Below, piece by piece: positions 10,362 to 15,250 of a stretch of 64,000 nucleotides of DNA (its first letter is position 1; each line of letters begins with the position of its first letter). The position numbers were made by a program, and so were the translations under genes. The notes under the pieces are model-generated. The model worked only from the letters and a program-made list of their open reading frames with translations. It made no database searches and was not told where the DNA came from. Location: the NCBI RefSeq assembly GCF_058153355.1, contig NZ_CM177019.1, one strand, 5' to 3'.

Positions 10362-10461
<100 letters not shown>

Positions 10462-10553
10462 GCAATGAATGCGAAACCGCGGTGTAAATAACGACAAAAA
10501 TAAAATTGGCCGCTTCGGTCAGGGCCAACTATTGCCTGAAAAAGGGTAACGAC

Positions 10554-11924
10554 ATGAAAAAATTAACCTGCTTTAAAGCCTATGATATTCGCGGGAAATT
10601 AGGCGAAGAACTGAATGAAGATATTGCCTGGCGTATTGGGCGTGCCTATGGCCAATTTCTCAAACCGAAAACCATTGTGTTAGGCGGTGATGTCCGCCTC
10701 ACCAGCGAAACCTTAAAACTGGCGCTGGCAAAAGGTTTACAGGATGCGGGCGTTGACGTGCTGGATATCGGTATGTCCGGCACCGAAGAGATCTATTTCG
10801 CCACGTTCCATCTCGGCGTGGATGGCGGCATTGAAGTTACTGCCAGCCATAATCCGATGGATTACAACGGCATGAAGCTGGTGCGCGAGGGGGCTCGCCC
10901 GATCAGCGGTGATACCGGACTGCGCGACGTCCAGCGTCTAGCTGAAGCCAACGACTTTCCTCCCGTCGATGAAACCAAACGCGGTCGCTATCAGCAAATC
11001 AACCTGCGTGACGCTTACGTTGATCACCTGTTCGGTTATATCAACGTCAAAAACCTCACGCCGCTCAAGCTGGTGATCAACTCCGGGAACGGCGCAGCGG
11101 GTCCAGTAGTGGACGCCATTGAAGCCCGCTTTAAAGCCCTCGGCGCGCCCGTGGAATTAATCAAAGTACACAACACACCGGACGGCAATTTCCCCAACGG
11201 TATTCCTAACCCGCTGCTGCCTGAATGCCGCGACGACACCCGCAATGCGGTCATCAAACACGGCGCGGATATGGGCATTGCTTTTGATGGCGATTTTGAC
11301 CGCTGTTTCCTGTTTGACGAAAAAGGGCAGTTTATCGAGGGCTACTACATTGTCGGTCTGCTGGCAGAAGCATTCCTCGAAAAAAATCCCGGCGCGAAGA
11401 TCATCCACGATCCGCGTCTTTCCTGGAACACCGTTGATGTGGTGACTGCCGCAGGCGGCACGCCGGTGATGTCGAAAACCGGACACGCCTTTATTAAAGA
11501 ACGTATGCGCAAGGAAGACGCCATCTACGGTGGCGAAATGAGCGCCCACCACTATTTCCGTGATTTTGCTTACTGCGATAGCGGCATGATCCCGTGGCTG
11601 CTGGTCGCTGAACTGGTATGCCTGAAAGGAAAAACGCTGGGCGAACTGGTGCGTGACCGCATGGCAGCGTTTCCGGCAAGCGGTGAGATCAACAGCAAAC
11701 TGGCGCAACCCGTTGAGGCGATTAACCGCGTCGAACAGCATTTTAGCCGCGAGGCGCTGGCGGTGGATCGTACTGATGGCATCAGCATGACCTTTGCCGA
11801 CTGGCGCTTTAACCTGCGCTCTTCCAACACCGAACCGGTCGTACGCCTGAATGTGGAATCGCGCGGTGATGTGCCGCTGATGGAAGCGCGAACGCGAACT
11901 CTGCTGACGTTGCTGAACGAGTAA
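10554..11924 (+). CDS. cpsG: phosphomannomutase
   Basis: Phosphohexomutase active-site region (TASHNP); start set at [14 protein letters not shown] (456 aa), not the upstream ATG at 10506. Confidence 0.9.
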
Positions 11925-11933
11925 TGTCATTAC

Positions 11934-12036
11934 TTTCCCCCTCACCCTGACGCTCTACTGCCTGCGGAGAGAAGTGAGCACGGAACTTTATTCTCCCCCT
12001 CGCCCCTTTGGGGAGAGGGCCGGGGTGAGGGGCGAG
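11934..12036. repeat. GC-rich imperfect palindromic intergenic element (boxC-like; name uncertain)
   Basis: Repeated CCCCTCaCCC / CCCCCTCGCCCC motifs and their complement GGGGTGAGGGGCGAGG around cccctttggggagaggg; explains the Pro/Arg/Gly-rich antisense ORFs 11809-12145. Confidence 0.5.
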
Positions 12037-12059
12037 GCGACAATAGAACAGGAACAACG

Positions 12060-13454
12060 ATGACAAATCTAAAAAAGCGCGAGCGAGCGAAAACCAATGC
12101 ATCGTTAATCTCTATGGTGCAACGCTTTTCAGATATCACCATCATGTTTGCCGGACTATGGCTGGTTTGCGAAGTGAGCGGACTGTCATTCCTCTACATG
12201 CACCTGTTGGTGGCACTGATTACGCTGGTGGTGTTCCAGATGTTGGGCGGCATCACCGATTTTTATTGCTCATGGCGCGGTGTTCGGGCAGCGACAGAAT
12301 TTGCCCTGCTGCTACAAAACTGGACCTTAAGCGTGATTTTCAGCGCCGGACTGGTGGCGTTCAACAATGATTTCGACACGCAACTGAAAATCTGGCTGGC
12401 GTGGTATGCGCTGACCAGTATCGGACTGGTGGTTTGCCGTTCGTGTATTCGTATTGGGGCGGGCTGGCTGCGTAATCATGGCTATAACAAGCGTATGGTC
12501 GCGGTGGCGGGGGATTTAGCCGCCGGGCAAATGCTGATGGAGAGCTTCCGTAACCAGCCGTGGTTAGGGTTTGAAGTGGTGGGCGTTTACCACGACCCGA
12601 AACCGGGCGGCGTTTCTAACGACTGGGCGGGTAACCTGCAACAGCTGGTCGAGGATGCTAAAGCAGGCAAGATTCATAACGTCTATATCGCGATGCAAAT
12701 GTGCGACGGCGCGCGAGTGAAAAAACTGGTCCATCAACTGGCGGACACCACCTGTTCGGTGCTGCTGATCCCCGATGTCTTTACCTTCAACATTCTCCAT
12801 TCACGTCTTGAAGAGATGAACGGCGTTCCGGTGGTGCCGCTTTACGACACGCCGCTTTCCGGGGTTAACCGCCTGCTCAAACGTGCGGAAGATATTGTGC
12901 TGGCGACGCTGATCTTGCTGCTGATCTCCCCTGTGCTGTGCTGCATTGCGCTGGCGGTGAAACTGAGCTCACCGGGGCCGGTTATTTTCCGCCAGACTCG
13001 CTACGGCATGGATGGCAAACCGATCAAAGTATGGAAGTTCCGTTCCATGAAAGTGATGGAGAACGACAAAGTGGTGACCCAGGCGACGCAGAACGATCCG
13101 CGCGTTACTAAAGTGGGGAACTTTCTGCGCCGCACCTCGCTGGACGAATTGCCGCAATTTATCAATGTACTGACCGGGGGGATGTCGATTGTGGGGCCAC
13201 GTCCGCACGCGGTGGCGCATAACGAACAGTATCGCCAGCTCATTGAAGGCTACATGCTGCGCCATAAAGTGAAACCGGGCATTACCGGCTGGGCGCAGAT
13301 TAACGGCTGGCGCGGCGAAACCGACACGCTGGAGAAAATGGAAAAACGCGTCGAGTTCGACCTTGAGTACATCCGCGAATGGAGCGTCTGGTTCGATATC
13401 AAAATCGTTTTCCTGACGGTATTCAAGGGCTTCGTTAACAAAGCGGCATATTGA
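12060..13454 (+). CDS. wcaJ: undecaprenyl-phosphate glucose phosphotransferase (initiating transferase)
   Basis: 464-aa ORF; N-terminal TM segments and C-terminal bacterial sugar transferase domain (PRPHAV...KPGITGWAQINGWRGE). Confidence 0.9.
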   Translation: MTNLKKRERAKTNASLISMVQRFSDITIMFAGLWLVCEVSGLSFLYMHLLVALITLVVFQMLGGITDFYCSWRGVRAATEFALLLQNWTLSVIFSAGLVAFNNDFDTQLKIWLAWYALTSIGLVVCRSCIRIGAGWLRNHGYNKRMVAVAGDLAAGQMLMESFRNQPWLGFEVVGVYHDPKPGGVSNDWAGNLQQLVEDAKAGKIHNVYIAMQMCDGARVKKLVHQLADTTCSVLLIPDVFTFNILHSRLEEMNGVPVVPLYDTPLSGVNRLLKRAEDIVLATLILLLISPVLCCIALAVKLSSPGPVIFRQTRYGMDGKPIKVWKFRSMKVMENDKVVTQATQNDPRVTKVGNFLRRTSLDELPQFINVLTGGMSIVGPRPHAVAHNEQYRQLIEGYMLRHKVKPGITGWAQINGWRGETDTLEKMEKRVEFDLEYIREWSVWFDIKIVFLTVFKGFVNKAAY

Positions 13455-14934: not shown

Positions 14935-14963
14935 GTTGTTGTTTTCGGTTCCGACAACGGTTG

Positions 14964-15250
14964 CCGGGTGCAGCGTAAAACGCCTTATCCGTCCTACGGT
15001 TCTGTGCTCGGGACCTGTAGGCCTGATAAGACGCGTCAGCGTCGCATCAGGCACTGAATGCCGGATGCGGCGTGAACGCCTTATCCGTCCTACGGTTCTG
15101 TGCTCGGGACCTGTAGGCCTGATAAGACGCGTCAGCGTCGCATCAGGCACTGAATGCCGGATGCGGCGTGAACGCCTTATCCGGCCTACGGTTCTGTGCT
15201 CGGGTCTTGTAGGCCTGATAAGACGCGCCAGCGTCGCATCAGGCAAAAAG
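14964..15250. repeat. tandem array of about three 96-bp REP/BIME units
   Basis: Unit gccggatgcggcgtgaacgccttatccg(t/g)cctacggttctgtgctcggg(a/t)c(c/t)tgtaggcctgataagacgcg(t/c)cagcgtcgcatcaggc repeats with 96-bp period (starts 15060 and 15156, partial copy before). Confidence 0.8.

Follow-up and report, generated by a model that had tools for sequence, protein, structure and literature searches.

In the colanic-acid operon of Escherichia coli, the spacer between cpsG and wcaJ can carry a GC-rich palindromic element, which raises the questions of what this element is, how it came to lie there and whether it interrupts transcription of the operon. It was analysed in a stretch of 64,000 nucleotides from contig NZ_CM177019.1 (RefSeq assembly GCF_058153355.1), hereafter called the window.

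The cpsG-wcaJ spacer

In the open reading frames of the window, the stop codon of cpsG occupies positions 11922-11924 and the ATG of wcaJ starts at 12060. Both flanking genes bear these names in the RefSeq annotation of a 99.9%-identical record (NZ_CP053736.1), and RefSeq places no feature under the spacer. The element described in the original prediction, a GC-rich palindrome with C-rich blocks opposite G-rich blocks, is present between the two genes, and its facing motifs lie where they had been placed, i.e. CCCCTCACCC at 11938-11947, CCCCCTCGCCCC at 11995-12006 and GGGGTGAGGGGCGAGG at 12022-12037. The spacer has the following features:

11925..12059, plus strand: cpsG-wcaJ intercistronic spacer, long allele, 135 nt, within the colanic-acid operon transcript (bounded by the open reading frame ends at 11924 and 12060)
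11938-11956 and 12014-12032: inverted pair, 19 nt, 84% (repeat search)
11996-12006 and 12022-12032: inverted pair, 11 nt, 91% (repeat search)
11998-12007 and 12028-12037: inverted pair, 10 nt, 100% (repeat search)
12050..12053, plus strand: Shine-Dalgarno sequence AGGA of wcaJ, read from the sequence, 6 nt before the ATG at 12060 and outside the predicted structure
11809-12102 (97 aa) and 11942-12145 (67 aa), minus strand: open reading frames crossing the spacer, where RefSeq annotates nothing

The three inverted pairs overlap one another. The 21-mer GGGAGAGGGCCGGGGTGAGGG has a single occurrence in the window and none in 100 shuffles. A separate, weak A/T-rich stem-loop spans the cpsG stop codon at 11905-11929 (10 pairs, 3 of them GC, then TTACTTTCCC); it was flagged as terminator-like by the scan, at chance level (2 found versus 1.0 expected).

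Identification of the right-hand unit as BoxC

The GC-rich palindrome is a copy of BoxC, a dispersed repeat of E. coli that is identical with PIT, TMECO type B and HPG2. The prediction had named it, with some hesitation, "boxC-like", and this was correct: positions 11997-12032 agree at 36 of 36 nucleotides with BoxC/TMECO copy no. 3 of E. coli K-12, which is listed in Table 1 of Holder et al. 2015 (PMC4666352) and whose sequence was confirmed directly in K-12 MG1655 DNA. The unit is composed as follows:

11978..12033, plus strand: full 56-nt BoxC unit, consisting of the core and the type-B 5' flank GCACGGAACTTTATTCTCC, delimited by the extent of matches at other E. coli loci
11997..12032, plus strand: BoxC/PIT/TMECO core, type B, with one mismatched triplet (36/36 to TMECO no. 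3 of K-12 MG1655)
11997-12005, plus strand: C-block of the core, CCCTCGCCC
12006-12010, plus strand: loop of the core, CTTTG
12011-12019, plus strand: first G-block of the core, GGGAGAGGG
12020-12022, plus strand: loop of the core, CCG
12023-12031, plus strand: second G-block of the core, GGGTGAGGG, followed by G at 12032

The published three-block TMECO consensus (CCCTCNCCC N3-6 GGGNGAGGG N3 GGGNGAGGG; Holder et al. 2015, PMC4666352) is matched exactly by 11997-12031, and 12011-12031 is an exact HPG2 G-quadruplex motif as defined by Kaplan et al. 2016 (PMC5100583). For comparison with the K-12 copies, 16 loci of MG1655 were used, with 21 of the 23 listed copies and their flanks aligned on the core; the nhmmer profile built from K-12 BoxC copies matched the window at 11993-12032 with E = 1e-11. 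When the spacer served as a blastn query, other E. coli loci aligned only over its positions 54-109, corresponding to 11978-12033 of the window. The type-B 5' flank GCAC...TTTTCY is common to the K-12 type-B copies and is matched by GCAC..TTTATTCTCC of the window copy; a conserved T-rich stretch preceding the C-rich region was described by Kaplan et al. 2016 (PMC5100583). BoxC units measure 51-59 bp, typically 56 (PMC5172473), and the original K-12 record comprised 33 copies (PMC2267715). According to Holder et al. 2015 (PMC4666352), the BoxC of the 1990s, the PIT elements of Hoyne and Maher (2000-2002) and TMECO are one and the same. A search of Rfam at permissive thresholds over 11500-12500 returned E-values of 1.7 at best, far below the gathering scores and from eukaryotic families.

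The presence of BoxC at this junction is already known, and there is nothing essentially new in the element itself. It had been catalogued before: entry 391 of Table S8 of Holder et al. is the 36-mer of 11997-12032, located at NC_013361 2875141-2875106, and these coordinates fall between wcaJ and cpsG in the RefSeq annotation of E. coli O26:H11 11368. A search of the Holder supplements by gene name (wcaJ, cpsG, manB, colanic) did not retrieve the locus. In the long-allele spacer of strain O55:H7 RM12579 the third block reads GGGTGCGGG (A to C), so this copy escapes pattern-based TMECO catalogues, and the coordinates of its locus are absent from the Holder supplements.

Membership of a dispersed repeat family, which had also been suggested, was borne out by a blastn search with the spacer against 5426 complete E. 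coli genomes. It yielded 28042 places in 4610 genomes (E <= 1e-3), of which 15 were on plasmids. With a median of 6 places per genome, the 56-nt core is a dispersed repeat. Its separation from REP units likewise stood, because the REP consensus matches two other spacers of the operon and not 11925-12059, where the REP head consensus GCCKGATGCGRCG has no match even with 2 mismatches. The two matching spacers are:

10363-10463: REP/BIME array in the cpsB-cpsG spacer, exact REP head consensus in both orientations
14963-15244: REP/BIME array in the spacer after wzxC, exact REP head consensus in both orientations

Three consecutive intercistronic gaps of the operon therefore carry structured repeats.

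Several observations concern BoxC copies elsewhere. None of the 16 K-12 BoxC loci inspected bears a repeat feature in RefSeq. Of the 11 inspected K-12 loci with a single copy, six lie between convergent genes, at their 3' ends, and REP elements, too, often sit in such positions. About 25 nt upstream of K-12 copy no. 3 there is a partial extra copy, CCCCAAAGGGGAGAGGGGA. Far outside the enterobacteria, the exact three-block pattern with GGGAGAGGG and GGGTGAGGG blocks is very abundant, with at least 145 copies in Mitsuaria chitosanitabida; among the matches listed, it also occurs in metagenome-assembled genomes of Methylomirabilota, Contendobacter and one unclassified organism. Nearly all the matches listed belong to M. 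chitosanitabida, the rest to three metagenome-assembled genomes, and Enterobacteriaceae loci do not figure among them. The interiors of the Mitsuaria pairs listed often contain tandem repeats, and the arrangement of these pairs looks cassette- or MITE-like.

The left half as a probable decayed inverted partner

The left segment of the spacer (11939-11974), to which the motif CCCCTCACCC belongs, reads on the plus strand as CCCTCACCC (11939-11947), TGA, CGCTCTACTGCC (11951-11962), TGC and GGAGAGAAG (11966-11974). This block order is that of BoxC read from the other strand, disturbed by an insertion and several mismatches. The second-best match of the K-12 BoxC profile in the 64-kb window falls here, at 11956-11936 of the minus strand (AGAGCGTCAGGGTGAGGGGGA; 6.7 bits, with E = 0.56 in a search space of 128 kb), and the 3' flank of the left unit on that strand, GGGG-GAAAG, is similar to GAAMAG, the flank of type A. 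The corresponding feature is:

11936..11976, minus strand: probable decayed inverted partner, type-A-like, recognised by a weak profile match and by block order

Copies of K-12 often form inverted pairs of one type-A and one type-B unit (PMC4666352; PMC5100583). One of them, the lldD-trmL pair (nos. 17+18), has the same minus-then-plus order as the window, and its left unit shows the same block order as that of the window, as does the left unit of an intact pair found at cpsG-wcaJ in Cedecea (see below). Judged by block order and flanks, the window element is probably an inverted pair consisting of an intact type-B unit and a decayed type-A partner; what speaks against treating the whole as a BoxC pair is that the left unit is just weakly recognisable (6.7 bits).

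Predicted secondary structure and G-runs

The long imperfect hairpin that the prediction had envisaged agrees with the computed folds. The spacer RNA of the plus strand folds at -57.6 kcal/mol, compared with -44.3 +/- 3.9 kcal/mol for 200 dinucleotide shuffles (z = -3.38), of which one folded as well; the minus strand is less exceptional (-53.4 kcal/mol, z = -1.97). Two features were derived from this part of the analysis:

11934..12042, plus strand: long imperfect hairpin of the whole pair (minimum free energy structures)
12010..12032, plus strand (coding strand, mRNA): four G-runs, GGGG AGA GGG CC GGGG TGA GGGG, fitting a G-quadruplex motif

In the predicted outer stem the C-run and CCCTCACCC are paired with GGGTGAGGGG, and in the predicted inner hairpin CCCTCGCCCC is paired with GGGGAGAGGG. 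The minimum free energy is -54.3 kcal/mol for 11934-12037 and -26.2 kcal/mol for the 56-nt unit alone. The structure ends at 12042; positions 12043-12059 are unpaired in both the minimum free energy and the centroid structure, and the Shine-Dalgarno sequence of wcaJ (12050-12053) is predicted to be single-stranded.

The G-rich half, which lies on the coding strand 28-50 nt ahead of the wcaJ start, has a G4Hunter score of 2.2 over 12008-12032 and is a strong candidate for a G-quadruplex. TMECO oligonucleotides, including type B with one mismatch, have been studied by CD and NMR with respect to triplex and G-quadruplex formation by the isolated strand (PMC4666352). It could thus be imagined that the G-rich half works as a switch between G-quadruplex and hairpin, raising transcription or translation of wcaJ through a quadruplex in the RNA or in the non-template DNA. 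Such a switch would be in keeping with the four G-runs and their score, with the CD evidence reportedly obtained in vitro for a G-quadruplex/hairpin switch of HPG motifs (PMC5100583), and with the 2024 report that, in E. coli, RNA quadruplexes in 5'UTRs enhance translation and non-template quadruplexes enhance transcription (PMC11087576). However, the complementary C-blocks lie directly upstream and the predicted Watson-Crick hairpin takes up all the G-runs, and a regulatory effect of the family was established by neither Holder et al. nor Kaplan et al. (PMC4666352; PMC5100583), so that we consider this switch highly improbable.

Transcription across the element

The original prediction further suggested that the hairpin could terminate or pause transcription between the two halves of the operon, and this part is unsupported. 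An intrinsic terminator consists of a GC-rich hairpin directly followed by a U-tract, and here the hairpin is present and the U-tract missing: the 22 nt after the hairpin on the plus strand (CGACAATAGAACAGGAACAACG) contain a single T, and no T-run follows the hairpin on the minus strand either. The promoter and terminator scan recorded neither a promoter-like site nor a terminator at the element. The published tests were reportedly negative, too. As related by Holder et al. (PMC4666352), Hoyne and Maher (2002) reported that PIT elements neither act as promoters or terminators nor affect RNA polymerase or reverse transcriptase, and that they blocked DNA polymerase in vitro. The negative result on termination came from other copies and constructs, which weakens its bearing on a passive role of the pair studied here. 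An in vivo DMS footprint of K-12 copy no. 3, which has the identical 36-mer, gave no sign of a stable triplex (PMC4666352). BoxC copies of K-12 also occur inside other operons (e.g. pstA-pstB and yihS-yihR), and for intra-operon copies a terminator role was put forward as a speculation and called "plausible" by Kaplan et al. 2016 (PMC5100583).

On this background an intra-operon attenuator or pause site has to be weighed, in which the hairpin, or a G-quadruplex or triplex on the non-template strand, would pause or drop RNA polymerase, so that expression of wcaJ-wzxC-wcaKLM would be lowered relative to the upstream sugar-nucleotide genes. It would draw on the very stable predicted structure (-57.6 kcal/mol) and the quadruplex-prone run (G4Hunter 2.2), on the reported block of DNA polymerase in vitro, on the opinion of Kaplan et al. 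quoted above and on a precedent, the stem-loop attenuator after wzc in colanic-acid and group 1 capsule operons (PMC2516531; PMC3438125). Set against these are the missing U-tract, the reported lack of terminator activity and of any RNA polymerase effect of PIT elements, the footprint of copy no. 3 and the observation that the operon bears REP arrays in other spacers and yet stays unsplit. The operon is, moreover, read under RfaH/ops antitermination, which also counts against attenuation. Both the pausing and the lowered expression of the downstream genes seem to us quite unlikely. A weak polarity effect of the long allele is likewise unsupported, and stays conceivable because stem-loop attenuators are known elsewhere in this operon type; a modest effect on pausing or on mRNA stability is conceivable, too. 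The most likely role of the BoxC pair would be that of a passively carried repeat, which contributes a strong mRNA hairpin and a rearrangement-prone DNA palindrome.

Long and short alleles in E. coli

The full long spacer was found in exactly 508 of the 5426 complete E. coli genomes, at one place each and always between cpsG and wcaJ, a locus that 4647 of the genomes carry. Strains with the long allele are diverse and include O26, O55:H7, O145 and O102:H6 as well as bovine and avian isolates. The short alleles sampled are 54-55 nt long and contain a 9-bp hairpin, CCCTTACCC-CACTGC-GGGTAAGGG. In the long allele, about 34 nt of the short one, between TAATGTC and AACAGGAAC, have been exchanged, and a target duplication is absent; the outer blocks of the long allele, CCCTCACCC...GGGTGAGGG, sit at the positions of the short-allele arms and differ from them by one compensated base pair.

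Spacers of the same allele class hardly differ from each other. Identical WcaJ proteins are found next to long and short spacers alike, the right flank of the long-allele strain C5 equals that of two short-allele strains (K-12-like and A16) over 290 nt, and long alleles differ among themselves in their flanks. The allele state thus varies independently of both flanks, an indication of recombination breakpoints in or close to the spacer. As far as sequence comparison can tell, this would be consistent with a single origin of each allele and later recombination in a variable region. Paired sites of the family often collapse to simple stem-loops, the "palindrome effect" of Holder et al. (PMC4666352).

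As regards variation around the spacer, the last 290 nt of cpsG (compared with 11640-11924 of the window) show 8-17 differences (3-6%) between strains and the first 290 nt of wcaJ show 0-6. Within the long allele, O145:H28 and C325 each have one C fewer in the left C-run and one G fewer in the first G-run.

The junction in other genera

Outgroups were reached via WcaJ homologues and their contigs; a Klebsiella sp. locus with glycosyltransferase neighbours in place of cpsG was left out. In Salmonella enterica, S. bongori, Citrobacter rodentium and C. amalonaticus the spacers are 53-56 nt long and contain essentially the short hairpin of E. coli. Kosakonia, Pseudescherichia, Yokenella, Trabulsiella and one Enterobacter each have a different hairpin of a pyrimidine arm and a purine arm at the junction, and in Cronobacter the junction is occupied by a larger GC-rich structure other than BoxC. 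In Cedecea davisae the spacer measures 153 nt and contains an intact BoxC pair, again in the order minus then plus, whose units reach 33.3 and 29.8 bits with the K-12 profile. In every genus sampled, a GC-rich hairpin lies 10-25 nt upstream of the wcaJ Shine-Dalgarno sequence, its 5' arm rich in C and T and its 3' arm rich in G and A, and no description of a stem-loop between cpsG and wcaJ was found in the literature searched. The short hairpins fall below the BoxC level, at 7.8 bits or less against the K-12 profile. For the pair of Cedecea and the long allele of E. coli, common descent, transfer and independent targeting are indistinguishable.

The recurrence of a hairpin at this site can be read as a sign that the junction needs one: like REP elements, the hairpin might hold up 3'-5' exonucleases on the mRNA, or be processed in a way that determines how the two operon halves are balanced. 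The BoxC pair would then be a stronger version, with its outer stem where the old stem sat. The GC hairpin 10-25 nt upstream of the Shine-Dalgarno sequence was seen in 12 of 12 genera sampled, with arms that vary (CCCTTACCC, CCCTCGCCC, CCCCTCTCC, CTCTCCCC, CCCTCTC and CCCCTCCC), and between the outer arms of the long allele and the ancestral arms there is a paired change, C/G versus T/A, by which complementarity is kept. RNAalifold, applied to ten short spacers, gave a consensus of 7 pairs, 3 of which show compensatory changes, but the covariation is weak, with a term of only -0.38 kcal/mol on a poor alignment. Single-sequence folds were relied on instead, because the consensus rests on distant genera that MAFFT misaligns. 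The hairpins could, besides, be relics of repeats and not selected structures, and long alleles do change within their blocks, e.g. to GGGTGCGGG in O55:H7 and by 1-nt deletions in O145:H28. A functional hairpin at the junction, and the BoxC pair as its reinforced form, both appear to us rather unlikely. Since some hairpin is kept in 12 of 12 genera, it can still be argued that the position is under selection, and its replacement may then not be neutral.

As for the direction of change, the short form is most simply taken as ancestral for Escherichia because Salmonella and Citrobacter share a near-identical hairpin, and the BoxC pair is probably the derived allele, since all other sampled E. 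coli and the four Salmonella and Citrobacter species carry the short form. Against this order it can be held that it is based on four outgroup species and that, given the intact pair of Cedecea, repeated collapse of an old pair is also conceivable. Derivation of the short hairpins from BoxC, or the reverse, is a speculation; the collapse of paired sites described by Holder et al. would run opposite to the path proposed here for the long allele.

Origin and spread of the BoxC pair

Taken as a whole, the explanation that we favour, and hold with reasonable though not full confidence, is that the element is a BoxC pair that was derived by recombination or gene conversion, is passive in the mRNA and contains no intrinsic terminator. 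Most likely, the old arms (CCCTTACCC/GGGTAAGGG) would have recombined, or undergone gene conversion, with the BoxC blocks (CCCTCACCC/GGGTGAGGG), to which they are nearly identical, and the resulting long allele would have taken the place of the small 9-13 bp GC hairpin in about one tenth of E. coli genomes. The pair would be transcribed passively within the polycistronic colanic-acid mRNA, which may fold there into a very stable predicted hairpin that leaves the ribosome-binding site of wcaJ free. At the DNA level it would form a structure-prone palindrome of a kind tied to local rearrangement, which would fit the polymorphism of long and short alleles. Of these points, the identity of the element, the family of copies, the frequencies of the alleles, the predicted fold and the missing U-tract are shown, and the direction of change, the route by recombination and the lack of a regulatory effect are inferred.

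A different origin would be transposition of a MITE-like mobile element with CCCTCACCC...GGGTGAGGG as terminal inverted repeats into the spacer. The inverted-pair unit with matching outer ends has the appearance of such an element, presence and absence are polymorphic in E. coli, and adjacent Mitsuaria pairs stand in minus-then-plus order in 27 of 30 cases among the matches listed, with conserved outer ends (GAAGACCCTCACCCC...GGGGTGAGGGTCTTC) and variable interiors. Against transposition, about 34 nt were replaced rather than an element being added, and no target-site duplication accompanies the replacement, for which reason the reading as a clean insertion was rejected. No transposase is linked to the BoxC family, only 15 of the 28042 blastn places lie on plasmids, and Holder et al. 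(PMC4666352) did not find an association with transposons, phages or plasmids. We regard a MITE-like origin as very improbable.

A wider view of the junction is that it holds one ancient element in two states, a simple hairpin (11 of 12 genera) and a full BoxC pair (the long allele of E. coli and C. davisae). Through their microhomology, the arms of the hairpin would offer a "landing pad", and BoxC would spread and collapse by hairpin-templated gene conversion and not by transposition. We think this unlikely; if it were so, the series of long and short alleles in E. coli would make the propagation of BoxC directly testable, and likewise a possible effect of BoxC on the relative expression of the two parts of the colanic-acid operon.

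Comparison with known systems and significance

The window copy resembles BoxC/PIT/TMECO/HPG2 elements in its three-block sequence, the CCG second loop, the T-rich 5' flank, the intergenic and multi-copy occurrence and the probable inverted pairing with a type-A-like unit. It differs in that its putative partner is decayed and in that it lies inside an operon, between co-directional genes, for which pstA-pstB and yihS-yihR are precedents. With REP/BIME (PU) elements it shares the nature of a short GC-rich palindromic extragenic repeat that lies in intercistronic spacers and folds in the mRNA, but BoxC has a three-block C/G/G structure, whereas REP is a simple palindrome whose head consensus is unmatched in the BoxC spacer. 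We know of no RAYT-type transposase linked to BoxC and of no demonstrated mRNA-stabilising role of BoxC, in contrast to REP.

The stem-loop attenuator associated with wzc is comparable as another intra-operon hairpin in RfaH-dependent exopolysaccharide operons. In the capsule clusters of Klebsiella pneumoniae it lies just upstream of wbaP, the gene of the initiating glycosyl-phosphate transferase and functional counterpart of wcaJ. The wzc element is described as related to a Rho-independent attenuator (PMC2516531; PMC3438125), whereas the BoxC element has no U-tract and belongs to a dispersed family. The small cpsG-wcaJ hairpin of short-allele E. coli, Salmonella and Citrobacter is alike in position, and its arms, CCCTTACCC/GGGTAAGGG, are one compensated pair apart from the BoxC blocks. 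In contrast to the BoxC pair, it has 9-13 bp at about -21 to -29 kcal/mol, lacks a third block and is not detectably BoxC; among the short spacers of E. coli, Salmonella and Citrobacter, the sole match to the BoxC profile was one of 5.3 bits in S. bongori.

Descriptions of BoxC go back to the 1990s, and three re-descriptions have followed. RefSeq has no feature at this spacer or at the 16 K-12 BoxC loci, and so the repeat keeps being "rediscovered". The two natural alleles of the cpsG-wcaJ junction, the 135-nt BoxC pair (508 of 5426 genomes) and the 54-55 nt hairpin, constitute a ready-made isogenic test of BoxC function. They bear on a question that has been standing for 30 years, namely the effect of BoxC on transcription, mRNA stability and, at this locus, colanic-acid output.
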